NCBI RefSeq assembly: GCF_056746865.1 | Contig: NZ_CM163382.1 | Direction: 5' to 3' (one strand) | DNA: 64,000 nt | Shown: positions 5,378-64,000 of the stretch, piece after piece | Layout: each line of letters begins with the position of its first letter | Position numbering within the stretch: position 1 is the stretch's first letter | Position numbers and translations under genes: made by a program | Notes under the pieces: generated by a model | Told to the model about the DNA's origin: nothing | Databases searched by the model: none | What the model saw: the letters and a program-made list of their open reading frames with translations, nothing else

Positions 5378-6715
5378 TTAATCTTTGCTTATTGGTGCAT
5401 CTAAGGGATACGGGTTTTTATGCAGCCGGTTGTAATTCAGCGCATACATGGCGGTGATGACCATCAGGGTGACAAATGACCACATAACCTCTTTCGCCCC
5501 GGACCCGACCACGGCCCAGATGCAGTAGAGGAAGGCAATGGTAGTAACTGCCAGGTATGCCGGGCGTGCTTTACCAAAGTGACCGTGGCCGAGCAGCAGT
5601 AATGCCGCACAGGTGTAAAGATATGGCACCAGTGTAAAGATGACCGAGACGGAAGAAACCAGACCGAACTCTTTGGTCGCGTTTGGCGAAATGCTGCTGA
5701 GCTGGAAGATGGTCATCAAAATACCGACGATAATCAGCCCCGCCACTGGTGTGCCCGCTTTATTAACACGGGCAAAAATTGGTGGGAACAGTCCGTCATC
5801 GGCAGCGGCTTTCGCCGTTTGACCCGCCAGCAATGTCCAGCCGCCCAGTGAACCTAAGCAACCCGCAGCTGCGCAGAAGGAAACAATGGCCCCGGCGGTG
5901 TCACCCAACGCCATCCGTGCGGCATCACCGAATGGCGAGGCAGAAACGCGCAGTGCGGCATTCGGGATCATCCCCATAATCGCGGTGGTGGAGAGCACAT
6001 AGCAAACGGCGGCAATCAATACCCCACCAATGGTGGCGATAGGGACGTTGCGTTTCGGGTTTTTCACCACACCTGCGGCAACGGAGGCACTTTCCACACC
6101 GATGAACGACCACAGCGTAACGTTAAGGGTACTTTGAATTGCACCGAAGGTGCCCAGGCCGCTGACGTTCCATGCCGCCATATAGGTTTCACCACGGAAC
6201 CAGAACCAGCCAAATACGGCAATCCCGACGATGGGGATCAGCGCCAGCACAGTGGCAACGGCCTGCACGCGGGTGATCATTTTCGGACCGACAATATTCA
6301 GCAGGACGAAGATCCACAGCACCACGACGCAGGTGATGGTTAATACCAGTGGATCTTTCAGAATCGGGAAGAAGTAACTTAAATAACCTACGCCAATGAC
6401 CACCATGGCGATATTGCCGATCCAGCAGGCCAGCCAGTAGAGGACGTTGGTTTGATAACCGAGAAACGGCCCAAAGCAGCGGCGGGCGTAAGCGTAAGAA
6501 CCACCAGGACTTGGGTCGAGGAACGACATTTTGGCGTATACCATCGAGAGCCCCAGCGCACCGATAATCGTCACCAACCATCCATAAATGGCAATCCCGC
6601 CAGTGGAGGCCAGGTTTGCAGGTAACAGAAAAACACCTGACCCCATAATATTCCCCGACACCATCAGGGTAACGGGGATTAAGCCCACTTTGTGAGCATC
6701 AGCATCCGAAGACAT
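5378..6715 (-). CDS. adiC: Arginine:agmatine antiporter AdiC
   Basis: 445-aa APC-family transporter ORF; position between eptA and adiY as in K-12. Confidence 0.95.
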
Positions 6716-22280: not shown

Positions 22281-22577
22281 ATGGAAGGTAAAAACAAGTT
22301 CAATACTTATGTTGTTTCTTTTGATTATCCATCATCTTATTCCTCAGTGTTCTTAAGGTTAAGATCATTGATGTATGATATGAATTTCTCCTCTATCGTG
22401 GCTGATGAATATGGGATACCACGACAATTGAATGAAAATTCCTTCGCAATAACGACATCGTTAGCCGCAAGTGAAATCGAAGATTTAATCAGGCTTAAAT
22501 GCTTAGACTTACCGGATATTGATTTTGACCTCAACATTATGACCGTTGATGACTATTTCCGTCAGTTTTACAAGTAG
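22281..22577 (+). CDS. ghoS: Type V antitoxin GhoS (endoribonuclease)
   Basis: 98-aa ORF MEGKNKFNTYVVSFDYPSSY... matching recalled GhoS. Confidence 0.9.
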   Translation: MEGKNKFNTYVVSFDYPSSYSSVFLRLRSLMYDMNFSSIVADEYGIPRQLNENSFAITTSLAASEIEDLIRLKCLDLPDIDFDLNIMTVDDYFRQFYK

Positions 22578-22604: not shown

Positions 22605-22778
22605 ATGGCACTATTCTCTAAAATATTAATTTTTTATGTGATTGGTGTGAACATATCCTTTGTCATTATCTGGTTTATCTCACATGAGAAAACACATATT
22701 CGTTTACTTAGTGCATTCCTGGTAGGAATAACCTGGCCAATGAGTCTGCCTGTGGCATTACTTTTTTCTCTCTTTTAG
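22605..22778 (+). CDS. ghoT: Type V toxin GhoT (small membrane-lytic peptide)
   Basis: Hand translation MALFSKILIFYVIGVNISFVIIWFISHEKTHIRLLSAFLVGITWPMSLPVALLFSLF (57 aa), below the 60-aa ORF-track cutoff; immediately downstream of ghoS. Confidence 0.85.
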   Translation: MALFSKILIFYVIGVNISFVIIWFISHEKTHIRLLSAFLVGITWPMSLPVALLFSLF

Positions 22779-30092: not shown

Positions 30093-31631
30093 TTATTCTG
30101 AAGCGAGAAATTTGTCGAGATAAGGTACAACATAAGGAACAGAAGTCTGGAATATACCATTTTCAATCCAGTAAAGGGTGTTTGCCCCTGGGCGTAAATT
30201 AAAGGCGGTGAGATATGCATCAGCTGCTTCCCGGTTCATCCCCTTCATTTCATAAACCTTGCCAAGCAATACATAATTTAGCCAGGACATTTCAAGATCA
30301 ATGCCAGTATTTATCGCCTGATAAGACTCATCTGTTTTACCTTTTACCAGAGCACTGACCGCTTTTATTTGATATATAATGGACAGGTTATTCAATTCCG
30401 GTAGTGTAACAATGTTATCTATTTCTGTGTTCAGTGCTGCTAATTGTTTTTCATCTAAAGGATGTTGAGAATGGCGCACGATATCAACTAATGCTTTTTC
30501 TGCTCTCGCGTAGGTAAATTCTGGGGATGATTGAACAATCTCACCCAATAATTCACTGGCACGGTTCAATGATTTATCATCGCCATGCAGTAAATAATCA
30601 TGTGCCTGATAAAAATTAGTTAATAACGCACCACGATGAGGCAAAATTTGCTGGAGCATCTCCTGCATTCGTTGTGGCCACGGTTGGTTTAACGCTTTTG
30701 ATAAACTCTCCAGTAAATCATTTTGAATCGCCAGCTGATTACCGTTAGTGATGACATAACGTTTATCCAGCATGGTTGAACCATCTGCATTGTCTACCAA
30801 TTTTACCGACATAAAGCATTGTTGAGCACGGTATTGGCGCTGATTAACAAACGCAATAGATAATGTTTTACCGGAACTGCTCGGTTCATCAATGTTGTAG
30901 TTGATTTTGTCATGCACCATAAAGGTGGAGAAGGTGTTAAGTGATGTCGCCACCAAATCACCCACGCCTATCGCGTAAGAGAGCTGATACGGGGAACTCC
31001 AGCTGTTACAACTTTTATTTACCATATTAATGTCAATATCGCGTGGATTGAGCAAAATACGCGATTTGCTCATCGGAAGACGTGTATCAAGACTTGAAAA
31101 CGCTACCAGTGCTACACAGATACCTAACGACAACAGGAAAAAAAACCATACCCAAAAGGTAGTGAATCGTTTGCTTTTAACAGGGGATTGTTCAGGTGGT
31201 GTTGCGGTGTTTTGAATGTTAAGACTGTGGGAGGGAGAATCTGTGTCAGGAACCGCCTCTGGTATAGGGGGAGGCGAAGATAGCATTATTTCCTCTCCCT
31301 CTTCTTCGCTGTACCAGATAACCGGCACCATTAATTTATAGCCGCGCTTTGGTACAGTAGCGATATAGACAGGACTATCTTCATCATTATCTTTTAATGA
31401 CTTACGTAGTTCTGAGATACTCTGCGTCACAACGTGATTGGTGACAATACTTCTCTTCCAGACATTATCGATAAGTTCATCCCTGCTAAGTACTTCGCCA
31501 CTGTGTTGAGCAAAGAAAACCAGAAGATCGATTAATCTCGGCTCAAGGGTAAGTTGACGCCCATTGCGGCTAATTTGGTTTATGGACGGAGTAACAAGCC
31601 ATTCGCCAACGCGAACTACAGGTTGTTGCAT
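30093..31631 (-). CDS. cadC: Membrane-integrated transcriptional activator CadC (ToxR-like)
   Basis: 512-aa ORF: N-terminal winged-helix DNA-binding domain, single TM, periplasmic sensor. Confidence 0.95.
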   Translation of the reverse strand: MQQPVVRVGEWLVTPSINQISRNGRQLTLEPRLIDLLVFFAQHSGEVLSRDELIDNVWKRSIVTNHVVTQSISELRKSLKDNDEDSPVYIATVPKRGYKLMVPVIWYSEEEGEEIMLSSPPPIPEAVPDTDSPSHSLNIQNTATPPEQSPVKSKRFTTFWVWFFFLLSLGICVALVAFSSLDTRLPMSKSRILLNPRDIDINMVNKSCNSWSSPYQLSYAIGVGDLVATSLNTFSTFMVHDKINYNIDEPSSSGKTLSIAFVNQRQYRAQQCFMSVKLVDNADGSTMLDKRYVITNGNQLAIQNDLLESLSKALNQPWPQRMQEMLQQILPHRGALLTNFYQAHDYLLHGDDKSLNRASELLGEIVQSSPEFTYARAEKALVDIVRHSQHPLDEKQLAALNTEIDNIVTLPELNNLSIIYQIKAVSALVKGKTDESYQAINTGIDLEMSWLNYVLLGKVYEMKGMNREAADAYLTAFNLRPGANTLYWIENGIFQTSVPYVVPYLDKFLASE

Positions 31632-32211
31632 AATAGAAACTCATTCGAAAAGGGAATGATGCAATGATAATTGCCACAACCTATTTTTACCATCTATAGA
31701 TGGGTTTATTTACATATTATTGGTGAATGCAAGACGTTATTTTTACCAGCCATAAACTTCTTGATCACATAGTATTACGAAAGGATTTTACTGAGAACCA
31801 GAAGTAATATTCCTTACCATCAAAATTCATCATCTTTGCCAAAGAAAAATGTTCAGAAAATAATCCATGGAAAATTGCCCGGAGCGCTTACTATTTTTAT
31901 GGATTGTTAGTCTTTGCATGAGCAAGCGGACTGATACATTTCTCTTTGTTCTCATTCAGAAAATCTCATCAGTCGGCGTTCTGCCCGAGGTTGTGCTTTA
32001 TGGATGCGTTACGCTCCTGATGACGTCATTTGACGTTCAACAGCATCACGGGGCCGCGCGACATTTCACGTCAGTCAGTGCTATCGCTCAGGAACAAATT
32101 TTCCCGAATTGGGATATGCCCGCAAATTGCTGGTGATGTGGGGAGAATCTGGTTGAGTTCGGTAGAAATGATTTTTAGGCAGAACGCTTAAATTGTGGCG
32201 TCCTGAAACGA

Positions 32212-32238
32212 AAAACGGACCTCCGTGGAGGTCCGTTT
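32212..32238 (-). terminator. Rho-independent terminator downstream of tRNA-Phe 3' end (native chromosomal flank)
   Basis: Perfect hairpin aaacggacctcc/ggaggtccgttt followed on the minus strand by a T-rich run, placed directly 3' of the tRNA-Phe terminal nucleotides. Confidence 0.5.
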
Positions 32239-32247
32239 ATATGAATT

Positions 32248-32266
32248 TGGTGCCCGGACTCGGAAT
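32248..32266 (-). repeat. 19-nt 3'-terminal fragment of tRNA-Phe (att-site direct repeat, distal island junction)
   Basis: tggtgcccggactcggaat is the reverse complement of the 3' end of E. coli tRNA-Phe (…ATTCCGAGTCCGGGCACCA); sequence diverges from the tRNA body at 32267, so no intact tRNA is present here. Confidence 0.8.
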
Positions 32267-32513
32267 GAAACTGGTTATATAACCAATTGTTTTGTATCGA
32301 CTGTTTTATCCTTGTTCTTTTTGGGGCCACCAATGAGGCCCCCATGTGCAATTCGAATTCTTTTGACGCTATAATCCCTCTTTTTTGTGCTTTGTTGTAA
32401 TCATTTTGTCTGGTTCGATATGCTGAATCGCGGAATCGAAGTAACAACAAAATACAGAGATTTATAAAATACCTGGCTACCTGTGTTAGGGAGCGTTAAC
32501 GCACAGATTTTGT

Positions 32514-32840
32514 TTATGGCTGCCAGAAATGATCTGATGGTTTGTCGTCTGGCTCTGCAAGTACCCTGTTGATATCCCGGGAACCATGAACGATACGTTC
32601 GATACGAACTTCAGTATCCAGTACCCTGAACAGCAGAAGGTAACGACCATACGAACAACCTCTGATCCCAGCCCCTAACTCGGGTCTTTCTCTGTAGAGT
32701 ACTGGCGATTCGGCTATCAACAGACATTGTTGGTAAAGCTCTTCGGTAAAACTGATTGCACGGACAGGATTATCCTGAGCGATCCAGTCACCTATAGCTT
32801 CAAGATCGTGTTCTGCTAATGGTGAAACAGTCAGTTTCAT
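32514..32840 (-). CDS. parE: Type II toxin, ParE/RelE family
   Basis: 108-aa ORF with ParE-like conserved C-terminal region (…RIERIVHGSRD); 4-bp overlap with upstream antitoxin gene. Confidence 0.85.
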   Translation of the reverse strand: MKLTVSPLAEHDLEAIGDWIAQDNPVRAISFTEELYQQCLLIAESPVLYRERPELGAGIRGCSYGRYLLLFRVLDTEVRIERIVHGSRDINRVLAEPDDKPSDHFWQP

Positions 32841-33100
32841 ATTGGCTGTTCACCTTCTGCCATCTTTTTGTATTTGTGCGTCAGTCGCCCGAATACCTCT
32901 TCAGCACTTTTACTTTCACCGCTGTTGATGCCTGCGGTCACGGCGCTCTGGAGTGATTCAAGCTTTATCTGCTGTTCCCGTTCTTCCAGAGCACGAAGTC
33001 CGGCACGAATGACTTCACTTGTATTGTTATACCGACCACTTTCTATTTGTTCGCGGATAAACGTTTCAAAGTAAGGACTGAGGGATACACTGGTAGGCAT
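32837..33100 (-). CDS. parD: Type II antitoxin, ParD family (ribbon-helix-helix)
   Basis: 87-aa ORF MPTSVSLSPYFETFIREQIESGRYNNTSEVIRAGLRALEEREQQ..., typical ParD/COG3609 signature. Confidence 0.85.
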   Translation of the reverse strand: MPTSVSLSPYFETFIREQIESGRYNNTSEVIRAGLRALEEREQQIKLESLQSAVTAGINSGESKSAEEVFGRLTHKYKKMAEGEQPI

Positions 33101-33171
33101 GGTGATTTTCTCGCCGATTGATTACTATCAATTAATAATAGTTAATATTCGCGAATTGTAAAATACCTCTT

Positions 33172-34038
33172 TTATGCCTTGCGGCTTTTGTTCACTGTGC
33201 TTGCCAGGGCTTCCGAGTAGTGTCTGGCAATAATATCATTAAGCCTGTCAACCAGTTCTGGTTTCCTGAACGTGATGTGCGCGGAGCCCTTCTTAAAGTA
33301 TCTGATGCTGAACATCTCATCTTCATAGTCCTCTTTACCCTGAACAGACTGGATGTGGTCATCCAGATGAATGGTGATGTTTTCCCGGTTGTCGGGGATC
33401 GGTTTGCCGCTGAACAGATACAGCATTCTTTCCAGGTCGGCAAGTCGATCTGCCTGTTGCCCGGTGATAAGATGAAACCCCCACCGGTCCCACCTCACCA
33501 GGTTGTTGACGATAATTTTACTGCCAAATTTACAGGGTGAATTGTTTTCGTAATTCCAGCTCAGTCCCCTGAAAACATTGATCACCCCACGCTCAAACAC
33601 TTCATCTTTGTTCTGGTGCAGTTGTTCAAATGTGCTCAGAATGTTCGCTTCACTGATTTCCGGAAAATTATCGTATTCCAGTGACCGGTACCATGTATCA
33701 CGGGCCTGCGCATCCATTAATGACAGCATCCCGGAACGTTGCATCAGGTCACGCCAGATTTCGCGATCGAGATTGCGGGTGATGGCTTTCATTGCTGTTT
33801 CCGGTTTATCCATCAGCCAGCAGCCACAGCGAAAATCCTGTTTCATGGCCCAGTCCCGGGCGGTTTTACCTCCAATGCTTTCCGTCAGAACTGAGATTTC
33901 AGTCAGTTGCCGGATAAGTGTGTCGATTTGCAGCAGTGTACTCTTTCGTACAGCCAGAATGTGGCGGATACTGGTTGAGCAGATAACGTCCGTATGCCCG
34001 TTGACCACTTCCGGACGGGAGGCTGTGATATCAGACAT
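33172..34038 (-). CDS. Island-associated hypothetical protein (DUF4942-like)
   Basis: 288-aa ORF with good coding character; family assignment from recalled gene context downstream of cbtA-type modules, not verified. Confidence 0.6.
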   Translation of the reverse strand: MSDITASRPEVVNGHTDVICSTSIRHILAVRKSTLLQIDTLIRQLTEISVLTESIGGKTARDWAMKQDFRCGCWLMDKPETAMKAITRNLDREIWRDLMQRSGMLSLMDAQARDTWYRSLEYDNFPEISEANILSTFEQLHQNKDEVFERGVINVFRGLSWNYENNSPCKFGSKIIVNNLVRWDRWGFHLITGQQADRLADLERMLYLFSGKPIPDNRENITIHLDDHIQSVQGKEDYEDEMFSIRYFKKGSAHITFRKPELVDRLNDIIARHYSEALASTVNKSRKA

Positions 34039-34331: not shown

Positions 34332-34820
34332 TTACCAGTCGAAAGTGGGCAGGTCAGGCAGGCATTCAGCGCTGGCATCCAGATGAATGAGACTGACGCC
34401 ATAACGCCGGATAAGAGTGACAACCAGACGGCGGAACGTTTTTGACAGTCCCAGGCGTTTAAGTCGCAGAACCGGGTATGACCACGCATCGGTACGTAAC
34501 AGATATCCGCTACCTGTAAAATGAATCCATTCTGATTCGCCGGTGTCATTCGTCTGATGTGACAGCGAGTACAACCAGGCATTGTCCGTTTCCGTGATAT
34601 GTGCGGTACTGCAGCGTATGCCGGTAAGGGCCGCAGATGGTGGCGTGCGCTCTGCTGATGCCCGGTCAGATTCATCAACAACACGAAGGGAGTAACCGTT
34701 ATCGCAGACCACGTTAATCAGTTCAGCGAGAGTAACACCATCGACGTCAACGACAATGCGCCCCATGTTCAGTGCCTGCACGTTAATGCTGTCGGCTTCC
34801 AGCGTCAGGGCCAGTTTCAT
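34332..34820 (-). CDS. DUF5983 (YeeW-like) family protein
   Basis: 162-aa ORF immediately downstream of cbtA, overlapping its stop by 4 bp. Confidence 0.65.
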   Translation of the reverse strand: MKLALTLEADSINVQALNMGRIVVDVDGVTLAELINVVCDNGYSLRVVDESDRASAERTPPSAALTGIRCSTAHITETDNAWLYSLSHQTNDTGESEWIHFTGSGYLLRTDAWSYPVLRLKRLGLSKTFRRLVVTLIRRYGVSLIHLDASAECLPDLPTFDW

Positions 34821-35194
34821 TGTTTCGCCCCCGGATGTTTACCCAAGGTAATGTTATTTACCGTTCTGTAATTGTCGCGGGCCATCAGGCCGGTTGCCCG
34901 GCGGGCCCGGAGGATATCAATACTGTTTATTAACTGAGAACGGGTACAGGCGCTGAATCCCGGCTGGTCGGTACGTACCAGTGCGTATTTTTCAACGAGA
35001 AAGTTCACCGCATCGCACAGTGAAATGCCTGCCTCAATATGCTGCTCAATCACACGTTCATCAGCGAACGGTGTGTCATTCAGTGTGAGGCCGTAATGCT
35101 GGTCCAACAGTCGGGTGAGCAGTGTCTGCCAGATGGTGACGGGAGACGGGCAGCGCGATGCCTCCCGTACGTGTGTGTCAGGTAATGTTTTCAT
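34817..35194 (-). CDS. cbtA: CbtA-family toxin (cytoskeleton-binding toxin, YeeV/YkfI/YpjF family)
   Basis: Translation from MKTLP… is near-identical over most of its length to recalled YeeV; start set at ATG 35194 with GAGG RBS rather than the longer upstream ORF start. Confidence 0.85.
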   Translation of the reverse strand: MKTLPDTHVREASRCPSPVTIWQTLLTRLLDQHYGLTLNDTPFADERVIEQHIEAGISLCDAVNFLVEKYALVRTDQPGFSACTRSQLINSIDILRARRATGLMARDNYRTVNNITLGKHPGAKQ

Positions 35195-35240: not shown

Positions 35241-35615
35241 TTATGAGGTGGTTGCGGGTGCCAGTGTCGGATAAACAGCCATATAAACGTAACCACAGCT
35301 GCCGAGGGTGTCGGCTTCGCAGGTCAGCCCTCTGGCATACAGCGTGACGGTATGCTGATGGCGGGGATTCAGTTCACCGCTGGTGAGCATGAGTTCCAGT
35401 TGTTTCATCAGCAGCGGAAAGGCCTGGTCCAGATGATACGCATCCGCGTCGCTAAACTGCCCCCTGATACCGGCGCGGTCGGCAAGGTAATGCAACTGAT
35501 TGCCCTCCTGCACCAGACGTGCCCCGAAACAGGGCGTCACGGTGCAGGGGAGCCCCCACCAGGGGCGGTCGTTGTTGTTGTCGGGATGCGTTGTCCCGGG
35601 GTGTGTGTCTGACAC
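35241..35615 (-). CDS. cbeA: CbeA-family antitoxin (YeeU/YafW/YfjZ family)
   Basis: 124-aa ORF MSDTHPGTTHPDNNNDRPWWGLPCTVTPCFGARLVQEG… matching recalled YeeU. Confidence 0.85.
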   Translation of the reverse strand: MSDTHPGTTHPDNNNDRPWWGLPCTVTPCFGARLVQEGNQLHYLADRAGIRGQFSDADAYHLDQAFPLLMKQLELMLTSGELNPRHQHTVTLYARGLTCEADTLGSCGYVYMAVYPTLAPATTS

Positions 35616-47951: not shown

Positions 47952-49329
47952 GTATTCATAATGGATTAGGTTCAGCAGTTGCTGAAGTGCTTGTAGAAAC
48001 TTGTCCTGTGCCCATGCGTCGGGTGGGGGTTAAAGAGCGGTATGGCCAGGTTGAAACTCAGGACTTTTTACAGAGAGAGTACGGGTTAACCGCGCAAGCT
48101 ATTGTGGCGGCAGCCAGAGAGCTATTGTAATTCATGGAGTTTGTTTACCATTCTGTTTTTCTTAAAAGTGAGTGTCTGTGCGGTCACTAAACTCGGTAAT
48201 AAAGCAGTTCATTGCAGGATAAGAAGCGTTTGGTTGTGTCGTTTTACCGTAAGAACCGACCGCCGTATGTATCCATTAAGCCAGTATTGGTAACGTAGGT
48301 GCCCACCTTTTCAAACTGGTGGGCGCCTGTTATGGAGCAAAAACATTATCCGCAGAACCCCGCAGATCATTTTCAAATGAGTTAAACTTCAAATGGTTAA
48401 ACTGGCTTTGCAACCAGGAGCCTCTGTTGCCCGTATTGCCCGGGAACACGATATCAATGATAACCTCCTGTTCAAATGGCTCAGACTCTGGCAGAACGTA
48501 AGGTAAAGGGAGATGAAAAAGGCAATAGCAGAACTGAGTGACAGTGAAACCATTCTGGCGTACAGGGTTGGATGGTGAAACTGATAAAAAAACCCTCTGA
48601 AAATTCTGTCAGAGGGTGTAGTCAAAAATGGTAGATATTTACGATGCAGTAATGCTTTCACTCCGGTAATTAATTTCCGTGATTAACTGCTTTCGATCAA
48701 TAAAGGAATTGCAAAAGTGTGATCTTGTTCACGACATCGTGGATGATAATATGCCTGATGTCTGAATCCGGAAACAGTGCTCTGGCGGGTTTCATGTGAA
48801 GTTGACGGATAAAAAATCCGCACGACCAGACAGACGTGCGGTTTACGAAATTCGTAACAAGAGGCTTTTCTACGGATCACGTGGTGCGTGCCACGTGAAA
48901 TTTTTGTAGCGCAAAATGTGCAATGTGTAAATACAAGGAAGGAAAAAAGTTAAATTGGTAGAAGTCCATGCCTGCCACATGTACGTCTGCATTCCTCGTT
49001 TTGAACAGAATTCTCACCAGACATCGTGAATTTCTCATTCAATCATCAGAGATATTAACCAGGATTTTTATTGTTTTGTGATATCAGCAGTGCAGGTATA
49101 CAGACGTTAAAGTAATCAGGTTTATTATAACCACCTTTACAAAGTTGTATATGTTTATAATTTAATGATTTTAATGCCAGTCGTTTTCTGCTGCTTAAAT
49201 TGAGGTCGCATATTATACACAATAATATTCTTAGCATTATTAAATTAATAAGAGAGGATTCTTATCACTGTATTTTTGCTCCGCACTACCGTTCTGGCTG
49301 GTGAAGTAATAATACAGGAGAATAACAGA

Positions 49330-50871
49330 ATGCTTAAAAGACGTGATGCTTTTTTAAAGAAAAGCGCGCTGGCAGTGAGTGTGGCCCTGCTGCTCTCGGC
49401 TCAGGCTCAGGCTGTTTTGACAGGGCCTGTTGATGGTAATTCTTCCAGCTTACTGATTGGAGAAAACTCTTTTATTACGAATTTAACTGGTACAGTTAAT
49501 AACACTTTCCTTTTGGGAGGTGGCGCTTTTAACCTGGATTCACCAGGAAGTCTTCAGTTTGGCTCTTTTTCGGAAGTGTATAATTCTCCACACAGTGTCA
49601 CCCTGGGAAGGGATGCCGGTCAGGCTGAGTCAAAATATGGTGTTGCCATAGGTAAGAGCGCTGAGGTATTTAATTCACAGCATAGTGTTGCTATTGGGGG
49701 ATGGGCTGGAATAGAAAATTCTTCAGGCTCTGTAGCTCTGGGCCATGGCTCACAGGTGTCGGGAGAAAATAACGTGGTATCTGTTGGTGCCGGGCCTGAG
49801 GGATATGGAAAGAGTGTCAAAGGAGCACCGGAAACCCGCCGGATTATAAATGTGTCTGATGGTATCAATAACACAGATGCAGCGACGGTAGGGCAACTGA
49901 ATGAACGATTTGATGATGCACAGGTCTTTTTGTTGCAGACGAATGAAAGAATTGACGAGACAGATAAACGTCTTTCAACAGTTCATGCTGAACTCAGCAG
50001 GGATATTATTGCAGGCACATCGGCAGCGGTGACGTATACAGATGTAACAGCGCTTGCACTTCAGGATGAGATAAAGGATGGGACGAACAAAGTACGTGAT
50101 GAGTTGAAATCACAGGGAGACAGTCTGCGTGGTGAGATAGGCGGTGTATACAGAGATGCCCGTGCTCATACTGACAGTCAGGTCACAGCAGTACGTGATG
50201 AACTGAAGGCAGAGGGAGACAGTCTGCGCGGTGAGATAGGCGGTGTATACAGAGATGCCCGTGCTCATACTGACAGTCAGGTCACAGCAGTACGTGATGA
50301 ACTCAGCAGGGATATTATTGCAGGCACATCGGCAGCGGTGGCGTATACGGATGCATCTTCTCTTGCTCTTCAGGATGAAATAAAAGAAAAAGCGGATGAA
50401 ACAGTTCAGGTTTCCCGGGCTTATACAGATAAAAGTGTACGGGATGCCCGTAAAGAAGCGAAAAGCCAGGCAGAACATCTCAGCGATGTGCTTGTGAAGA
50501 ACAGGGCGCAGACGGATGCAGCAATAGCCTCAAATACAGCAGCGATAAGGAATAACAGTCATCGTCTGGATTTGACGGAAGCCTGGCAGAAGATGGCGAC
50601 AGAGAGAATGAATAATATGCAGGAGCAGATTAAAGAGAACCGGAAGGAGTTAAGGGAGAGTGCAGCCCAGAGCGCGGCACTGGCCGGTCTTTTCCAGCCA
50701 TACAGTGTTGGAAAATTTAACGCGACAGCAGCCGTTGGTGGTTACCGTGATGAGCAGGCCATTGCGGTGGGCGTGGGCTACCGTTTCACAGAGAATGTGG
50801 CAGGAAAAGTTGCAGTTGCTGCAGGTGGGTCATCCGCATCGTGGAATGCTGGTGTGAATTTTGAGTTCTGA
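49330..50871 (+). CDS. Trimeric autotransporter adhesin (YadA-like C-terminal anchor) with repeat-containing coiled-coil stalk
   Basis: ORF 49276..50871 trimmed to [28 protein letters not shown] (signal peptide); YadA-type head repeats (SVAIG/ VSVGAG), coiled-coil stalk, C-terminal beta-barrel anchor ending …AGVNFEF. Confidence 0.8.
50115..50312 (+). repeat. Tandem 99-bp (33-aa) direct duplication inside the adhesin stalk
   Basis: Units beginning gggagacagtctgcg at 50115 and 50214, encoding [30 protein letters not shown] twice; flanked by a second, more distant repeat pair ([12 protein letters not shown]…LALQDEIK). Confidence 0.8.
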
Positions 50872-56545: not shown

Positions 56546-57739
56546 TTACTTGCTTTTGCAGCAGCGCCAGATAAATACAGTCACCATGCTAAATAATACA
56601 GCGGCAAATAATGCCATCACAATCAGTGCTATTGCGACACCTGTTTTCGACACCAATGGTACCAACAACGCGCAAAGCCCATAGCCAAGTGTGTGACTGC
56701 AAGCGAGCCAGCCCGCGCCTGCGCCGTCGGCCAGCTTATCATTCAGTAAAAGTTGATAAGCGGGGGTTGCCAGAGCAGCTCCAAATGACAGCACTGCACA
56801 GCCTAGGTAAAACAACCATAGCTGTTCAGCGAGCATGATAGCCAGACCACTACTCATCAACACCCCGGCACTCAGGAGCAGAGCCACTGGAGTCAGGCGC
56901 TGTGGACGGAGTACCACGAACTGCGCGATAAGCGCAGCTATTGCGGACAGCCCCAACAACCACGCTACCTGTTGGCTAATAGTGGTGGTATCAGTGGCGA
57001 ACTGGCGAGTAAGGGCTGGAGAAAGTCCAAGCTGCATCATGCTCATTGCCGCAGCCAGTAACATTGCGCAAAGCAGATAAGGCAGGAAATCCCGCTTCAG
57101 GCTGACGCTCTTGCGCTCCGGTGTGGGCTGTGGTGGTGTGCCGGGCAACCGCAGAAGCATCACCAGTGCCAGCGCTGGCGCTGCCATCAGCATCCACACT
57201 GGCGCCAGAGGGTGAATGACCAACATTGCCGCCGCGCACAGCGGCCCGAATAGCCTGCCGCAGCTCAGGCCGGAGCTGATGGTTGCCAGAGCGGCCATGC
57301 GATTCCCATCTCCCGCTCTCTGCAATGCCCAGACCTGACAGGCTGGCACCATTGCTGACACGGTCAGACCGTAGACGATCCGGGCGATGATTAATATTCC
57401 CAACCCCACCGCTTTTGTTACGGCACCGGTAGCCATCAGCACGCTTCCCAGCCCAAGCAGGGTAAAGCTTACGCCATATCCTCCCAGAGCCCACAGCACC
57501 ACAGTCTTACTGCCAGTAAGGGAAATTTGCTTTCCCCACCATGGGGAAGATGGCAGAAACAGCATTGAGCCCAGCATCAGCAGGGCAGCCCATACAGACA
57601 GACTCAGATTTGTCTGTATGACCAGAACAGGGAGTACAACCAGCAGACCGTTCTGTCCGATACCGAGAAGACCGGCACTGAACGCCAGTGGCCAGCAGGA
57701 CAGGGTTTTTTGGGGCGTATCTTCGATCTTAGATGACAT
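56546..57739 (-). CDS. shiF: MFS transporter ShiF (aerobactin-locus associated)
   Basis: 397-aa 12-TM ORF divergent from iucA, as in aerobactin islands. Confidence 0.85.
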   Translation of the reverse strand: MSSKIEDTPQKTLSCWPLAFSAGLLGIGQNGLLVVLPVLVIQTNLSLSVWAALLMLGSMLFLPSSPWWGKQISLTGSKTVVLWALGGYGVSFTLLGLGSVLMATGAVTKAVGLGILIIARIVYGLTVSAMVPACQVWALQRAGDGNRMAALATISSGLSCGRLFGPLCAAAMLVIHPLAPVWMLMAAPALALVMLLRLPGTPPQPTPERKSVSLKRDFLPYLLCAMLLAAAMSMMQLGLSPALTRQFATDTTTISQQVAWLLGLSAIAALIAQFVVLRPQRLTPVALLLSAGVLMSSGLAIMLAEQLWLFYLGCAVLSFGAALATPAYQLLLNDKLADGAGAGWLACSHTLGYGLCALLVPLVSKTGVAIALIVMALFAAVLFSMVTVFIWRCCKSK

Positions 57740-57813
57740 TGTAATGTTTCAACACCATGTATTAATTGTGTTTATTTGTAAAATTAATTTTTCTGACAAT
57801 AACATTTCTCATT

Positions 57814-57832
57814 GATAATGATAATCATTATT
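57814..57832 (+). promoter_or_regulatory. Fur box in aerobactin promoter
   Basis: gataatgataatcattatt matches Fur consensus GATAATGATAATCATTATC at 18 of 19 positions; 40 bp upstream of iucA start. Confidence 0.8.
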
Positions 57833-57874
57833 GACATAATTGTTATTATTTTACTGTGTAGGAGCTGTTTGATT

Positions 57875-59599
57875 ATGATCCTGCCCTCTGAAAAATCCGC
57901 CACAGATGTGGCTGCGCAGTGCTTCCTGAATGCCTTGATTCGTGAAACCAAAGACTGGCAACTGGCGGAATACCCGCCAGACGAATTGATTATCCCGCTG
58001 GACGAACAGAAGTCGCTCCATTTCAGAGTGGCTTATTTCTCCCCAACCCAGCATCACTGCTTTGCATTTCCTGCTCATCTGGTCACGGCATCAGGCAGTT
58101 ATCCTGTCGATTTTACCACTCTCTCCCGGCTTATTATTGACAAGCTCCGGCATCAACTTTTTCTGCCAGTTCCCCTCTGCGAAACTTTCCACCAACGCGT
58201 GCTGGAAAGCTACGCCCATACGCAACAGACAATTGATGCCCGCCATGACTGGGCCATCCTGCGTGAGAAAGCGTTGAATTTTGGCGAGGCTGAGCAGGCA
58301 CTGCTGACAGGACACGCTTTCCACCCTGCACCTAAGTCTCATGAACCGTTTAACCGCCAGGAAGCTGAACGATACCTGCCTGACATGGCACCTCACTTCC
58401 CGCTGCGGTGGTTTTCGGTGGATAAAACGCAAATCGCTGGTGAAAGTCTGCATCTTAACCTTCAACAGCGGTTGACGCGATTTGCCGCAGAAAATGCGCC
58501 CCAGTTACTCAACGAATTAAGTGACAATCAATGGCTGTTCCCGCTGCACCCGTGGCAGGGAGAATATCTTTTGCAGCAGGTGTGGTGCCAGGCACTTTTT
58601 GCTAAAGGACTTATCAGAGACTTAGGCGAGGCCGGCACGTCGTGGCTGCCGACCACCTCTTCCCGCTCCCTCTACTGTGCTACCAGCCGCGATATGATCA
58701 AGTTCTCCCTGAGCGTTCGGCTGACCAACTCCGTCCGTACTCTGTCTGTGAAAGAGGTGGAGCGAGGAATGCGCCTGGCACGTCTGGCGCAAACCGACGG
58801 CTGGCAGATGCTACAGGCCCGCTTCCCTACTTTCCGGGTAATGCAGGAGGACGGCTGGGCCGGGCTGCGCGATCTTAACGGCAACATCATGCAGGAAAGT
58901 TTGTTTTCCCTGCGTGAAAACCTGCTGCTGGAGCAGCCGCAAAGCCAGACCAACGTTCTGGTTTCCCTGACTCAGGCCGCACCGGATGGCGGTGATTCGC
59001 TGCTGGTTTCGGCGGTAAAACGCCTGAGCGATCGCCTCGGTATCACTGTGCAACAGGCCGCCCACGCATGGGTCGATGCTTACTGTCAGCAGGTGCTGAA
59101 GCCTCTGTTTACGGCTGAAGCGGATTACGGCCTGGTGCTGCTGGCGCATCAGCAAAATATTCTTGTGCAGATGCTTGGGGATCTGCCGGTCGGATTTATT
59201 TACCGTGACTGCCAGGGCAGCGCGTTTATGCCTCACGCGACAGAGTGGCTCGATACCATTGACGAGGCGCAGGCGGAAAATATTTTCACCCGTGAGCAGT
59301 TGCTGCGCTATTTCCCTTATTACCTGCTGGTTAACTCCACTTTTGCCGTAACTGCTGCGCTGGGTGCTGCCGGGCTGGACAGCGAAGCGAATCTGATGGC
59401 TCGTGTACGAACATTGCTGGCTGAAGTGCGTGACCAGGTGACTCATAAAACCTGTCTCAACTATGTTCTGGAAAGTCCGTACTGGAACGTAAAAGGTAAC
59501 TTTTTCTGTTATCTGAACGATCATAACGAGAACACCATCGTTGACCCTTCGGTGATCTATTTTGATTTCGCTAACCCGCTGCAGGCTCAGGAGGTCTGA
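57875..59599 (+). CDS. iucA: Aerobactin synthetase IucA (NIS synthetase)
   Basis: ORF 57812..59599 trimmed to MILPSEKSATDVAAQCF… with GGAG RBS; IucA/IucC family. Confidence 0.93.
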   Translation: MILPSEKSATDVAAQCFLNALIRETKDWQLAEYPPDELIIPLDEQKSLHFRVAYFSPTQHHCFAFPAHLVTASGSYPVDFTTLSRLIIDKLRHQLFLPVPLCETFHQRVLESYAHTQQTIDARHDWAILREKALNFGEAEQALLTGHAFHPAPKSHEPFNRQEAERYLPDMAPHFPLRWFSVDKTQIAGESLHLNLQQRLTRFAAENAPQLLNELSDNQWLFPLHPWQGEYLLQQVWCQALFAKGLIRDLGEAGTSWLPTTSSRSLYCATSRDMIKFSLSVRLTNSVRTLSVKEVERGMRLARLAQTDGWQMLQARFPTFRVMQEDGWAGLRDLNGNIMQESLFSLRENLLLEQPQSQTNVLVSLTQAAPDGGDSLLVSAVKRLSDRLGITVQQAAHAWVDAYCQQVLKPLFTAEADYGLVLLAHQQNILVQMLGDLPVGFIYRDCQGSAFMPHATEWLDTIDEAQAENIFTREQLLRYFPYYLLVNSTFAVTAALGAAGLDSEANLMARVRTLLAEVRDQVTHKTCLNYVLESPYWNVKGNFFCYLNDHNENTIVDPSVIYFDFANPLQAQEV

Positions 59600-60547
59600 A
59601 TGTCTGGGGCAAACATTGTTCACAGCGGATATGGACTGCGCTGTGAAAAACTCGACAAGCCTCTGAATCTTGGCTGGGGGCTGGACAATAGCGCGGTGTT
59701 GCACTGGCCCGGGGAGCTGCCAACAGGATGGCTGTGCGACGCGCTGGATCAGATATTTATCGCCGCACCACAACTTTCAGCAGTGGTTCTTCCCTGGTCC
59801 GAATGGTGTGAGGAGCCACAGGCGCTGACGCTTTTCGGACAGGTACAAAGCGACATTATCCATCGTTCCGCTTTCTGGCAGTTACCGTTATGGCTGAGTT
59901 CTCCGGCAAACCGGGCCTCCGGTGAAATGGTTTTTGATGCAGAGCGTGAGATTTATTTCCCGCAGCGCCCCCCCCGTCCGCAGGGTGAAGTTTATCGTCG
60001 TTACGATCCACGCATTCGCAGGATGCTGAGTTTCCGCATTGCCGATCCCGTTTCTGATGCAGAACGTTTCACTCGCTGGATGAACGATCCGCGCGTTGAG
60101 TATTTCTGGGAGCAAAGTGGCTCACTGGAGGTACAGATCGCCTATCTGGAACGCCAGCTCACCAGTAAACATGCATTCCCGCTGATTGGTTGTTTCGACG
60201 ATCGGCCGTTCAGTTATTTCGAAATCTACTGGGCGGCGGAAGACCGCATTGGTCGCCACTATTCGTGGCAGCCCTTTGACCGTGGCCTGCATCTGCTGGT
60301 TGGTGAACAGCAATGGCGCGGAGCCCACTATGTGCAAAGCTGGCTGCGCGGGGTGACACATTACCTGCTGCTGAATGAGCCACGTACGCAGCGCACAGTA
60401 CTGGAGCCACGCACCGATAACCAGCGCCTGTTCCGCCATCTTGAGCCTGCGGGATACCGGACAATTAAAGAGTTCGACTTCCCACATAAACGCTCGCGCA
60501 TGGTGATGGCGGATCGTCATCACTTCTTCACGGAGGTCGGTCTGTAA
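59600..60547 (+). CDS. iucB: N6-hydroxylysine acetyltransferase IucB
   Basis: 315-aa ORF in operon position 2. Confidence 0.93.
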   Translation: MSGANIVHSGYGLRCEKLDKPLNLGWGLDNSAVLHWPGELPTGWLCDALDQIFIAAPQLSAVVLPWSEWCEEPQALTLFGQVQSDIIHRSAFWQLPLWLSSPANRASGEMVFDAEREIYFPQRPPRPQGEVYRRYDPRIRRMLSFRIADPVSDAERFTRWMNDPRVEYFWEQSGSLEVQIAYLERQLTSKHAFPLIGCFDDRPFSYFEIYWAAEDRIGRHYSWQPFDRGLHLLVGEQQWRGAHYVQSWLRGVTHYLLLNEPRTQRTVLEPRTDNQRLFRHLEPAGYRTIKEFDFPHKRSRMVMADRHHFFTEVGL

Positions 60548-62289
60548 TGAATCACAAAGACTGGGATTTGGTCAACCGCCGCTTGGTGGCAAAAATGTTG
60601 TCTGAGCTGGAGTATGAGCAGGTTTTCCACGCGGAATCTCAGGGCGATGACCGCTACTGCATTAACCTGCCGGGAGCACAATGGCGCTTCATCGCTGAAC
60701 GTGGTATCTGGGGCTGGCTCTGGATTGATGCTCAAACTCTGCGCTGCGCGGACGAGCCAGTACTGGCTCAGACGCTGCTGATGCAGCTAAAGCAGGTACT
60801 GTCAATGAGCGATGCAACCGTTGCTGAGCATATGCAGGATTTGTATTCCACGCTGCTGGGCGACCTGCAACTGCTGAAAGCCCGTCGCGGGCTGAGCGCC
60901 AGTGACCTGATTAATCTTAGTGCCGACCGCCTGCAATGCCTGCTGAGCGGTCATCCTAAATTCGTTTTTAATAAAGGTCGCCGTGGCTGGGGTAAAGAGG
61001 CGCTGGAACGATATGCGCCAGAGTATGCCAACACCTTTAGACTGCACTGGCTGGCGGTAAAACGTGAACATATGATCTGGCGCTGTGATAACGAGATGGA
61101 TATTCATCAGTTGTTGACGGCCGCAATGGATCCGCAGGAGTTTGCCCGCTTCAGTCAGGTCTGGCAGGAAAACGGACTGGATCATAACTGGCTGCCGCTG
61201 CCTGTACATCCGTGGCAGTGGCAGCAAAAAATCGCCACCGACTTCATCGCTGATTTTGCCGAAGGCAGGATGGTGTCTCTCGGCGAGTTTGGCGACCAGT
61301 GGCTCGCCCAGCAGTCGCTGCGTACCCTGACCAACGCCAGTCGCCGGGGTGGGCTGGATATCAAGCTGCCGCTGACCATCTACAACACCTCATGCTACCG
61401 GGGGATTCCTGGCAGATACATCGCTGCCGGACCACTGGCTTCACGCTGGCTACAACAGGTTTTTGCGACCGACGCTACCCTGGTGCAAAGCGGTGCAGTG
61501 ATCCTTGGTGAACCGGCTGCAGGCTATGTCTCCCATGAAGGCTATGCCGCGCTTGCCCGGGCTCCCTATCGCTACCAGGAAATGCTTGGTGTTATCTGGC
61601 GGGAGAATCCGTGCCGCTGGCTGAAACCGGATGAAAGTCCGGTTCTGATGGCAACACTGATGGAGTGCGACGAAAACGATCAGCCGCTGGCAGGCGCATA
61701 TATAGACCGCTCCGGGCTGGACGCTGAAACCTGGCTTACGCAACTGTTCCGGGTGGTCGTGGTTCCTCTGTATCACCTGCTTTGCCGCTACGGTGTCGCG
61801 CTTATTGCACATGGACAAAATATAACGCTCGCCATGAAAAAGGGGGTTCCACAGCGTGTTCTGCTGAAAGACTTCCAGGGCGATATGCGGCTGGTGAAAG
61901 AAGAGTTCCCCGAAATGGACTCTTTGCCTCAGGAGGTTCGTGATGTTACATCCCGCCTGAGTGCGGACTACTTAATCCATGATTTGCAGACGGGTCACTT
62001 CGTGACAGTACTGCGTTTTATTTCGCCACTGATGGTTCGTCTTGGCGTACCTGAACGGCGATTTTATCAACTGCTGGCAGCAGTGTTGAGTGATTACATG
62101 AAAAAACATCCACAAATGTCAGAGCGTTTTGCGCTTTTCTCACTTTTCAGGCCACAAATCATTCGCGTGGTGCTGAACCCGGTAAAACTGACCTGGCCTG
62201 ATCTGGATGGCGGCAGCCGCATGCTGCCGAATTACCTTGAGGATCTGCAAAATCCGCTGTGGCTGGTAACTCAGGAATATGAATCATGA
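60547..62289 (+). CDS. iucC: Aerobactin synthetase IucC
   Basis: 580-aa NIS synthetase paralogous to IucA. Confidence 0.93.
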   Translation: MNHKDWDLVNRRLVAKMLSELEYEQVFHAESQGDDRYCINLPGAQWRFIAERGIWGWLWIDAQTLRCADEPVLAQTLLMQLKQVLSMSDATVAEHMQDLYSTLLGDLQLLKARRGLSASDLINLSADRLQCLLSGHPKFVFNKGRRGWGKEALERYAPEYANTFRLHWLAVKREHMIWRCDNEMDIHQLLTAAMDPQEFARFSQVWQENGLDHNWLPLPVHPWQWQQKIATDFIADFAEGRMVSLGEFGDQWLAQQSLRTLTNASRRGGLDIKLPLTIYNTSCYRGIPGRYIAAGPLASRWLQQVFATDATLVQSGAVILGEPAAGYVSHEGYAALARAPYRYQEMLGVIWRENPCRWLKPDESPVLMATLMECDENDQPLAGAYIDRSGLDAETWLTQLFRVVVVPLYHLLCRYGVALIAHGQNITLAMKKGVPQRVLLKDFQGDMRLVKEEFPEMDSLPQEVRDVTSRLSADYLIHDLQTGHFVTVLRFISPLMVRLGVPERRFYQLLAAVLSDYMKKHPQMSERFALFSLFRPQIIRVVLNPVKLTWPDLDGGSRMLPNYLEDLQNPLWLVTQEYES

Positions 62290-63563
62290 AAAAAAGTGTC
62301 GATTTTATTGGTGTAGGGACAGGGCCATTTAATCTCAGCATTGCTGCGTTGTCACATCAGATCGAAGAACTGGACTGTCTCTTCTTTGATGAACATCCTC
62401 ATTTTTCCTGGCATCCGGGTATGCTGGTACCGGATTGTCATATGCAGACCGTCTTTCTGAAAGATCTGGTCAGTGCTGTTGCACCTACAAATCCCTACAG
62501 CTTTGTTAACTATCTGGTGAAGCACAAAAAGTTCTATCGCTTCCTTACAAGCAGACTACGTACAGTATCCCGTGAAGAGTTTTCTGACTACCTCCGCTGG
62601 GCTGCTGAAGATATGAATAACCTGTATTTCAGTCATACCGTTGAAAACATTGATTTCGATAAAAAACGTCGATTGTTTCTGGTGCAAACCAGCCGGGGAG
62701 AATATTTTGCCCACAATATCTGCCTTGGTACAGGAAAACAACCTTATTTACCACCCTGTGTGAAGCATATGACACAATCCTGTTTCCATGCCAGTGAAAT
62801 GAATCTTCGTCGGCCGGACCTTAGTGAAAAACGGGTAACCGTGGTTGGTGGAGGACAGAGTGGTGCAGACCTGTTCCTTAATGCATTACGCGGGGAATGG
62901 GGAGAAGCGGCGGAAATAAACTGGATCTCCCGGCGGAATAATTTTAACGCACTGGATGAGGCTGCTTTTGCTGATGAGTATTTTACACCTGAATATATTT
63001 CAGGCTTCTCCGGACTGGAGGAAGATATTCGCCATCAGTTACTGGATGAGCAGAAAATGACATCGGATGGCATCACTGCCGATTCTTTACTGACCATTTA
63101 TCGTGAGTTGTACCACCGTTTTGAAGTTCTGAGAAAACCAAGAAATATCCGTCTGCTACCCAGCCGCTCGGTAACAACTCTGGAAAGTAGTGGTCCTGGC
63201 TGGAAGTTGCTGATGGAGCATCATCTGGATCAGGGCAGGGAGAGCCTGGAAAGTGATGTGGTGATTTTCGCCACAGGTTACCGTTCTGCGTTGCCACAAA
63301 TACTTCCCTCACTGATGCCGCTGATCACCATGCACGATAAGAACACCTTTAAAGTGCGTGATGACTTCACTCTGGAATGGAGTGGCCCGAAAGAGAACAA
63401 CATCTTCGTGGTCAACGCCAGTATGCAAACCCATGGCATCGCCGAACCTCAGCTCAGCCTGATGGCATGGAGATCTGCACGTATTCTTAATCGTGTAATG
63501 GGACGTGATTTATTCGATCTCAGTATGCCGCCCGCCCTGATTCAGTGGCGCAGCGGCACCTAG
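62286..63563 (+). CDS. iucD: L-lysine N6-monooxygenase IucD (FAD/NADPH)
   Basis: 425-aa ORF with N-terminal GxGxxN dinucleotide motif (IGVGTGPFNLS). Confidence 0.93.
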   Translation: MKKSVDFIGVGTGPFNLSIAALSHQIEELDCLFFDEHPHFSWHPGMLVPDCHMQTVFLKDLVSAVAPTNPYSFVNYLVKHKKFYRFLTSRLRTVSREEFSDYLRWAAEDMNNLYFSHTVENIDFDKKRRLFLVQTSRGEYFAHNICLGTGKQPYLPPCVKHMTQSCFHASEMNLRRPDLSEKRVTVVGGGQSGADLFLNALRGEWGEAAEINWISRRNNFNALDEAAFADEYFTPEYISGFSGLEEDIRHQLLDEQKMTSDGITADSLLTIYRELYHRFEVLRKPRNIRLLPSRSVTTLESSGPGWKLLMEHHLDQGRESLESDVVIFATGYRSALPQILPSLMPLITMHDKNTFKVRDDFTLEWSGPKENNIFVVNASMQTHGIAEPQLSLMAWRSARILNRVMGRDLFDLSMPPALIQWRSGT

Positions 63564-63644: not shown

Positions 63645-64000
63645 ATGATGATAAGCAAAAAGTATACGCTTTGGGCTCTCAACCCACTGCTTCTTACCAT
63701 GATGGCGCCAGCAGTCGCTCAACAAACCGATGATGAAACGTTCGTGGTGTCTGCCAACCGCAGCAATCGCACCGTAGCGGAGATGGCACAAACCACCTGG
63801 GTTATCGAAAACGCCGAACTGGAACAGCAGATTCAGGGCGGCAAAGAGCTTAAGGACGCACTGGCTCAGCTGATCCCTGGCCTTGACGTCAGCAGCCGGA
63901 GCCGCACCAACTACGGTATGAATGTGCGTGGCCGCCCGCTGGTCGTGCTGGTTGACGGCGTGCGTCTCAACTCTTCACGTACCGACAGCCGACAACTGGA
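63645..64000 (+). CDS. iutA: Ferric aerobactin TonB-dependent receptor IutA (5' part only; continues past window end)
   Basis: MMISKKYTLWALNPLLLTMMAPAVAQQTDDETFVVSANRS… signal peptide plus TonB-box region; open to window end. Confidence 0.85.
   Translation, partial: MMISKKYTLWALNPLLLTMMAPAVAQQTDDETFVVSANRSNRTVAEMAQTTWVIENAELEQQIQGGKELKDALAQLIPGLDVSSRSRTNYGMNVRGRPLVVLVDGVRLNSSRTDSRQL

Follow-up and report, generated by a model that had tools for sequence, protein, structure and literature searches.

The parDE gene pair

This study concerns a predicted ParD/ParE toxin-antitoxin gene pair that occupies positions 32514-33100 of a 64,000-nucleotide stretch (the window) of contig NZ_CM163382.1 in RefSeq assembly GCF_056746865.1. 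Both genes lie on the minus strand, antitoxin first. The parD gene (32837-33100) encodes an 87-residue ribbon-helix-helix ParD antitoxin and is translationally coupled, through a 4-bp ATGA start/stop overlap, to the downstream parE (32514-32840), which encodes a 108-residue ParE-family toxin; each gene was delimited by its open reading frame and by profile matches. An overlapping ParD/ParE operon had been proposed at this position in an original prediction made from the letters of the DNA, and the open reading frames bear out its coordinates to the nucleotide.

The naming of the two genes is equally secure, the matches to Pfam and NCBIfam profiles lying far over the respective thresholds. The 87-residue protein matches Pfam PF03693 ParD_antitoxin (E 3.9e-17, 62.9 bits, cutoff 21) and NCBIfam TIGR02606 'ParD family antitoxin' (E 5.2e-28, 96.9 bits, cutoff 46.2), and the 108-residue protein matches Pfam PF05016 ParE_toxin over profile positions 3-88 of 89 (E 7.9e-18, 65.3 bits, cutoff 23). 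The toxin scores under the cutoff for the NCBIfam RelE_StbE profile TIGR02385 (24.3 vs 27.9) and is therefore not filed as RelE/StbE. In a sequence search of the PDB, ParD residues 3-64 align with Vibrio cholerae ParD2 (7b22, 5e-11) and Caulobacter ParD1 (3kxe_C, 1e-10). Strains PK8275 and 2015C-3121 are annotated with a toxin identical to the parE product (RefSeq WP_000779483.1), and homologues at 60-85% identity are found across the Enterobacterales (Serratia, Salmonella, Enterobacter, Pantoea, Erwinia, Dickeya, Photorhabdus and Proteus), where they bear automatic names only.

Comparison of the Escherichia coli, Serratia and Enterobacter copies gave ratios of nonsynonymous to synonymous substitution rates (dN/dS) of 0.07-0.10 for parD and 0.07-0.13 for parE, with dS saturated; judged from these alignments, both genes are under strong purifying selection. 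ParE is full length in all five of the ParDE loci that were read. One could instead suppose that the genes are decayed or nonfunctional remnants that keep their profile similarity, given that chromosomal toxin-antitoxin pairs often decay and that a few truncated ParE variants exist. However, the frames are full length and at least 99% identical in 469 genomes, dN/dS is only about 0.07-0.13, the promoter is kept and the structural model is confident, and we consider decay very improbable. Membership in the ParD and ParE families holds by every sequence and structure test that could be applied, the latter on a predicted model, and it is highly probable that this is a bona fide ParDE toxin-antitoxin pair.

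Fold and likely target of the toxin

The solved structures closest to the toxin by sequence are all ParE toxins, with 6x0a first (2.8e-13), followed by 7ycs, 3kxe, 5ceg, 5cw7, 7r5a and 8c24; the best relatives by name are Mesorhizobium ParE, PrpT, Caulobacter ParE1, O157 ParE2, V. cholerae ParE2 and Mycobacterium tuberculosis ParE1. An AlphaFold (AF2) model of the toxin, built on 39 homologues, has a mean predicted local distance difference test score of 84.2; it is confident over residues 1-94, and the last 13 residues are disordered. Its secondary structure elements are strand 2-5, helix 7-23, helix 25-44, strands 59-64, 67-73 and 77-85, and helix 86-94. When the model was compared with the PDB by Foldseek, ranks 1-21 were all ParE-type chains with target-normalised template modelling (TM) scores of 0.72-0.90, the sequence-related ParE toxins scoring 0.77-0.90 and PfiT 0.72-0.74, and the RNases RelE, YafQ and YoeB came after them (TM 0.5-0.74). 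The predicted fold of the toxin is thus of the ParE type, an N-terminal helical hairpin on a three-stranded sheet, and is nearer to ParE than to the RelE-type RNases. The original prediction had named the ParE fold as a point to be checked, and both the profile match and the Foldseek ranking of the AF2 model, with ParE ahead of the RelE-type RNases, answer in its favour.

A C-terminal motif, H85-G86-x-R88-D89, is at least 90% conserved among the 39 homologues and recurs in the closest solved ParE relative (HGARD in 6x0a). His91 of the Shewanella oneidensis toxin ParE_SO is critical for toxicity (PMC8706911). By likeness to that residue the H-G-x-R-D motif may have a part in toxicity, the equivalence of the two histidines being putative.

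By analogy with its family, the toxin would probably act on DNA gyrase; the estimate is kept at this level and no higher because exceptions are known in the family (PMC8706911). A ParE-fold toxin with some other target, as reported for O157 PaaA2-ParE2, would leave the addiction logic developed below unchanged. The exceptions themselves speak for such a target (PMC8706911), as do the low identity (20-30%) to the proven gyrase inhibitors V. cholerae ParE2, M. tuberculosis ParE1 and Caulobacter ParE1, and the PDB title of the closest solved relative, Mesorhizobium ParE (39%), which names no target. We nevertheless regard it as unlikely, as most characterised ParE toxins act on gyrase (PMC8706911) and the H-G-x-R-D motif, whose role in toxicity is suggested by analogy, is common to the 6x0a ParE.

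Promoter and candidate operator

The 71 bp 5' of parD (33101-33171, minus strand) form a candidate parDE promoter/operator region, identified with a consensus scan and a repeat finder. A promoter-like site comprises a -35 element TTTACA (33162-33157), a 16-nt spacer and a -10 element TATTAT (33140-33135). Immediately 3' of the -10 element lies an inverted repeat, ATTGAT-n4-ATCAAT (33117-33132), and an imperfect palindrome (33142-33161) lies inside the spacer between the -35 and -10 elements. About 30 bp that span the -10 element and the inverted repeat are kept 5' of parD in E. coli, Serratia and Enterobacter; sequence farther upstream is not. The inverted repeat has the position expected for the autoregulatory operator of a ribbon-helix-helix antitoxin, and we would expect ParD to bind there.

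A terminator scan found no terminator-like site between the parE stop codon and the att repeat described in the next section. The first such site 3' of parE is a hairpin with an 11-bp stem followed by a T run (32213-32238, minus strand), which lies just outside the att repeat and is stable in both minimum-free-energy and centroid folds. In keeping with the K-12 cadC-pheU layout, we take this hairpin to be the native pheU terminator. An Rfam search of positions 31600-33300 at a permissive threshold gave only a chance small nucleolar RNA match (E 0.5). We had considered whether parDE transcription might read across the att site into an integrase gene after excision or in tandem arrays. The lack of an E. 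coli terminator between parE and attR and the codirectional parE-att-int order of a Serratia junction would allow this, but the Serratia sequence has a terminator-like hairpin ahead of att, and the idea, with no other observation in its favour, was dropped as speculation.

A discrete cassette at the attR end of a tRNA-Phe island

A perfect 19-bp direct repeat of the tRNA-Phe 3' end (attR, 32248-32266, minus strand) lies 247 bp from the parE stop codon, in agreement with the predicted position of the pair at the distal tip of an island, some 250 bp from an att repeat. The 19-mer ATTCCGAGTCCGGGCACCA occurs once in the window, and none is expected by chance (100 shuffles). Since ARAGORN detected no complete tRNA gene in the 64-kb window, the repeat is the distal, partial copy, and the island continues past base 64000. 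The polarity of the island follows from this partial repeat and the lack of a full tRNA gene, together with the published layout of the GI-pheV islands (PMC11537424). The attR core is the same as the attR sequences tabulated for GI-pheV, minus the substitution of the intP4.1 islands (PMC11537424). The host element is a large pathogenicity island of the P4-integrase type that carries aerobactin genes and is inserted at pheU beside cadC. The parDE pair lies inside the perfect attR, and the yee/CP4-like block and the aerobactin cargo continue from it without a break, as expected of a bounded element.

The conserved yee/CP4-like block ends, directly 5' of parD and on the same strand, with a DUF4942 gene (33172-34038, minus strand), identified by Pfam PF13708 (E 6.6e-67) and by the RefSeq annotation that matching genomes carry. 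Alignment with strains ATCC 25922 and C7, including pairwise BLAST, delimits a ParDE cassette of 779 bp (32439-33217) with breakpoints at about 32438/32439 and 33217/33218. The right breakpoint is 46 nt inside DUF4942, so that the last 15 or so codons (33172-33217) belong to the cassette and the C-terminal tail of DUF4942 differs by island type: it ends in …SEALASTVNKSRKA in a protein of 288 residues in ParDE-type islands, and in …PNVLADR in a protein of 281 residues in islands whose cassette carries abiE genes (AbiE-type islands). On the other side, about 170 bp of att-proximal arm (32267-32438) align at about 90% identity with AbiE-type tRNA-Phe islands; this is presumably the attR arm that recombination proteins would bind. 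The G+C content of the cassette is 0.44-0.47, against 0.50-0.59 in the yee block.

Spread in E. coli and alternation with AbiE

A set of 5,426 complete E. coli genomes includes 472 with the 587-bp pair, which is at least 99% identical in 469 and always chromosomal, with 32 extra copies within carrier genomes. The exact cadC-att-parDE-DUF4942 junction occurs in 160 genomes; the other copies that were read are at pheV, on its yghD or kps flank. The pair comes directly 3' of DUF4942 in all of the intact loci read. At a rearranged tRNA-Ile/mug locus of strain STE15 (L005, 3712-4292), parD stands without parE and abuts a truncated cbtA, an orphan antitoxin that evidently arose by recombination between two yee-type blocks.

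The att arm is more widespread than the pair. It was found in 1,113 of the 5,426 genomes, 468 of which have the ParDE-type continuation, the others matching the first 170 bp only; about 645 further genomes thus share the 170-bp arm, at about 90% identity, without parDE. Between DUF4942 and this att arm only one other occupant was found, AbiEi (DUF6088; PADLOC AbiEi, E 4e-52) with AbiEii, in a cassette of 1,431 bp. In all four AbiE-type genomes read (ATCC 25922, C7, JJ1886 and one other isolate), AbiEi is intact and AbiEii is annotated as frameshifted (L006, 4186-5120; L007, 4186-5119; L044, 486-1419; L045, 486-1420). The AbiE-type attR has a single substitution, as tabulated for the intP4.1 GI-pheV islands (PMC11537424), and the ParDE-type attR is perfect.

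An empty form of the slot was not detected. A 160-bp synthetic junction of the arm and DUF4942 had no full-length match in the 5,426 genomes, and a longer synthetic junction query gave, among the top 60 matches, only two-piece matches with ParDE between the pieces. In an E. coli-like contig that had been binned into a metagenome-assembled genome (L030, 492-2027), a gene for a 511-residue CSS-motif/EAL cyclic-di-GMP phosphodiesterase lies between DUF4942 and att. This is a third kind of pheU tip, with a different arm, and the tip is variable beyond toxin-antitoxin modules.

Some type II toxin-antitoxin pairs defend against phage. The parDE pair could likewise be an anti-phage abortive-infection module, in which infection would shut down host transcription or degrade ParD and leave ParE to arrest the cell ahead of completion of the phage cycle, and the island tip would then be a defence slot. 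The original prediction had raised phage defence as a possibility, and the suggestion has gained no direct support; its only hint is the identity of the alternative occupant, since AbiEi/AbiEii is a recognised abortive-infection system. AbiEii is moreover confined to few integration hotspots in the E. coli pan-genome (PMC10121019). Set against this, ParE, ParD and DUF4942 match none of the 5,027 models of PADLOC-DB v2 (E <= 0.01), phage defence by any ParDE pair was not found in the literature searched, and the third pheU tip holds a CSS-EAL phosphodiesterase gene rather than a defence gene. The AbiEii toxin of the slot is itself frameshifted in four of four genomes read, and those lineages have thus not kept the slot as a working site of defence. 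A defensive role for the pair is accordingly improbable in our view.

The cassette outside E. coli

A scan with a DUF4942 query, one genome per species, found 30 loci. In those read at other att sites, chromosomal genes or tRNA remnants come directly next to DUF4942 (in E. albertii, on the mug/rpoD side), which rules out a toxin-antitoxin tip as a general feature of the DUF4942 block. Because DUF4942 elsewhere runs straight into chromosomal sequence in the loci read, the cassette is specific to the tRNA-Phe lineage.

That lineage extends to Serratia marcescens, where contig DAXLAU010000033.1 has the order antirestriction-radC-cbeA-cbtA-DUF5983-DUF4942-parD-parE. About 210 bp past parE there is a 22-bp tRNA-Phe 3' end (5532-5553), followed by a full, codirectional P4-type integrase gene; the region from parD through parE and att to the integrase gene (L040, 4741-6897) is without a full tRNA gene. 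The arrangement is most simply explained as two islands in tandem, the alternative being an attP-like junction. Serratia ParE is 85% identical to E. coli ParE at the protein level, and the Serratia att arm is not homologous to the E. coli arm. As the order is common to Serratia and E. coli despite the nonhomologous arms, the DUF4942-ParDE-att(Phe) linkage is old and has outlasted changes of the arm. The view that the pair was acquired separately from the conserved block is consequently upheld in one respect and not in another. A discrete 779-bp cassette of lower G+C content, with AbiE on the same flanks elsewhere, argues for separate acquisition; with the same order in Serratia and a ParE 85% identical, the event was not recent or strain-specific.

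Members of the same ParDE clade also occur elsewhere. In Enterobacter kobei the pair lies beside orphan immunity genes. No near-identical plasmid copy was found, the best plasmid matches having 72-76% nucleotide identity (a Salmonella plasmid and Pantoea megaplasmids), and the phage records gave one distant match only, in a Ralstonia phage (51% amino-acid identity). With no near-identical copy in either, plasmid and phage origins were discarded.

These occurrences bear on the possibility that the module is purely selfish, that is, active but of no consequence for the island: its deletion would kill the cell, and it could be displaced only if recombination supplied another module in its place. 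In none of the 5,426 genomes is the slot empty, the pattern is one of replacement rather than loss, and the clade has members away from island tips, in Enterobacter kobei and, at 72-76% nucleotide identity, on plasmids of Pantoea and Salmonella. Such a module is hard to tell from one that penalises loss of the island, since the genes next to an undeletable module are protected along with it. The retention of the DUF4942-ParDE-att(Phe) linkage from E. coli to Serratia, in spite of nonhomologous arms, nonetheless suggests selection for position, and we think a purely selfish pair rather improbable.

Neighbouring features of the island and its flank

Upstream of parDE and on the same strand, the yee/CP4-like block has the order DUF4942, DUF957, DUF5983, cbtA/cbeA, DUF987, radC, an antirestriction gene and DUF932. 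It corresponds to the 'yee' or CP4-44-like module that a study of the GI-pheV islands describes along with 19-bp repeats (PMC11537424). DUF4942 also has a weak match (E 7e-16) to a PHROG that bears the annotation DNA methyltransferase. The type IV toxin gene cbtA (34817-35194, minus strand; Pfam E 1.7e-63) and cbeA/yeeU (35241-35615, minus strand; Pfam E 8.2e-55) form a CbtA/CbeA module only about 2 kb upstream of parDE, and two unrelated toxin systems are therefore present at the island tip. The core-genome type V toxin-antitoxin pair GhoST (ghoS, 22281-22577, and ghoT, 22605-22778, both on the plus strand) is about 10 kb from the island boundary, which places three toxin-antitoxin modules of three types inside 13 kb.

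Distally the island is flanked by the chromosomal gene cadC (30093-31631, minus strand), defined by its open reading frame and RefSeq annotation. In line with the K-12 map, we take the stretch from cadC to the terminator to be the usual interval between cadC and pheU. Outside the present island, in the gap that separates attR from cadC, is an integrase pseudogene fragment (about 31897-32050, minus strand; coordinates transferred by offset from a related genome), which the NCBI annotation pipeline PGAP describes as 'integrase, frameshifted, missing N-terminus' in PK8275 and 2015C-3121. It looks like a relic of an older element at pheU, so that this site would bear the traces of two or more integration events in succession.

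The island cargo in the window includes the aerobactin genes iucA-D (57812-63563, plus strand), a shiF-like major facilitator superfamily transporter gene (56546-57739, minus strand) and a YadA-like adhesin gene (49276-50871). Several insertion sequence (IS) fragments lie in the right part of the window, and iutA, sitABCD and iha come next in related genomes. Stretches of 47-50 kb of the PK8275 and SMS-3-5 genomes are still wholly inside the island, short of the integrase/pheU end.

Discussion

We propose, with a probability of roughly 0.6, that parDE is a functional type II ParD/ParE operon that forms a self-contained attR-proximal cassette and penalises loss of the island that carries it. 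In this scheme a ParD dimer would bind the operator and repress the operon, and the C-terminal part of ParD would wrap around ParE and neutralise it. ParD would be proteolytically labile. If the island were excised and the nonreplicating circle lost, ParD would decay, and the freed ParE would poison DNA gyrase or another essential target, so that the island-free cell would be arrested or killed. The net effect would be to stabilise both island and cassette, comparable to what is reported for ParE_SO/CopA_SO in the P4-like prophage CP4So. Gyrase poisoning and stabilisation of the island had both been put forward in the original prediction, and they are reasonable expectations on the precedent of the family.

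Precedents for toxin-antitoxin modules in this role come from several integrative elements. The ParE_SO/CopA_SO pair maintains the excised CP4So circle in S. oneidensis so that reintegration is possible (PMC8706911, PMC8034616), HipAB stabilises CGI48 (PMC8978831) and SgiAT stabilises SGI1 (PMC5006074). By analogy with these, stabilisation of the island by the E. coli pair seems to us a slightly better than even prospect. A further indication is the contrast, in a small sample, between the four AbiE tips, which combine a frameshifted toxin with a substituted attR, and the ParDE tips, which combine an intact toxin with a perfect attR. Such a contrast would agree with a toxin whose importance lasts as long as the island is able to excise.

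Several observations count against this reading. Shortened ParE variants of 76 residues (P0090, P0094 and P0101) occur in a few E. coli genomes. The nearest complete genomes have an island that is longer than 70 kb and crowded with IS remnants, and its present capacity for excision is putative. Since it also carries cbtA/cbeA, ParDE is not the sole candidate retention factor. PMC8706911 cites O157 ParE2 as reportedly lacking gyrase inhibition and M. tuberculosis ParE2 as only a weak binder of GyrB. A literature search by accession came back empty for the E. coli protein, and no toxicity, neutralisation, gyrase or island-loss experiments on it were found.

We also put forward a more tentative extension, which is on balance doubtful. 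The interval between DUF4942 and attR in tRNA-Phe islands of the P4-integrase type could be an exchange slot that always holds a toxin-based module, ParDE or AbiE, loss of the module being lethal and the state of the toxin tracking the mobility of the island, with intact ParE beside a perfect attR and a dead AbiEii beside a mutated one. If this were true, one could read from the tip module whether a pathogenicity island is excisable or fixed, and the module might even help to bring that state about.

The pair itself is an ordinary type II module that is uncharacterised: RefSeq already labels it in hundreds of genomes by routine automatic annotation, and searches of the literature with the accession numbers of this exact pair returned nothing. 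A paper on the evolution of GI-pheV covers the yee module and the 19-bp repeats and contains no discussion of a toxin-antitoxin pair at the tip (PMC11537424). What is mildly new is the alternation of ParDE and AbiE without an empty form, together with the link, in a small sample, between the integrity of the toxin and that of attR. About one in 11 complete E. coli genomes carries the exact pair. In extraintestinal and avian pathogenic E. coli, large tRNA-Phe islands bring with them virulence cargo that includes aerobactin, sit and iha, and a working addiction module at the excision boundary would help to explain why such costly, IS-ridden islands are retained. The alternation of ParDE and AbiE on the same flanks is also a natural system in which to ask whether toxin-antitoxin modules are lost only by replacement.

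The E. coli pair can be compared with several known systems. The closest solved relative of the toxin is in the Mesorhizobium opportunistum ParD3-ParE3 system (PDB 5CEG; chimeric complex 6X0A), with a phmmer E value of 2.8e-13, 39% identity and TM scores of 0.88-0.90. That system shares the antitoxin-first operon and the ribbon-helix-helix ParD, but its setting is the chromosome of an alphaproteobacterium, and it is not known from island tips; the E. coli antitoxin, for its part, gives better matches to V. cholerae ParD2 and Caulobacter ParD1 than to the Mesorhizobium ParD. The family archetype, ParDE of plasmid RK2/RP4, has the family names, the operon order and the logic of postsegregational killing in common with the E. 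coli pair, and its ParE is the reference gyrase inhibitor among the work cited in PMC8706911. The RK2 pair stabilises a replicating plasmid, however, whereas the carrier of the E. coli pair is an integrated island. The PaaR2-PaaA2-ParE2 system of E. coli O157:H7 (PDB 5CW7/5CZF) has a ParE-fold toxin (TM about 0.83-0.85) and differs in having only 22-25% identity, three components and an unrelated antitoxin; its ParE2 is described in PMC8706911 as lacking gyrase inhibition, which warns against taking the target of the E. coli island ParE for granted.

Two further systems resemble the pair in their setting. The AbiE cassette of the intP4.1-type GI-pheV islands (ATCC 25922, JJ1886 and C7) occupies the same slot on flanks that are about 90% identical, but it is an unrelated type IV toxin-antitoxin/abortive-infection system, and in the four genomes read its toxin is frameshifted and its attR substituted. 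The closest functional analogue of the proposed role is ParE_SO/CopA_SO of CP4So, likewise a ParE-family toxin on a P4-like integrative element at a small-RNA gene. It differs in the name of the antitoxin, CopA instead of ParD, and in an operator motif made up of GTANTAC repeats. Maintenance of the CP4So circle has been shown experimentally, whereas excision of the E. coli island is putative.

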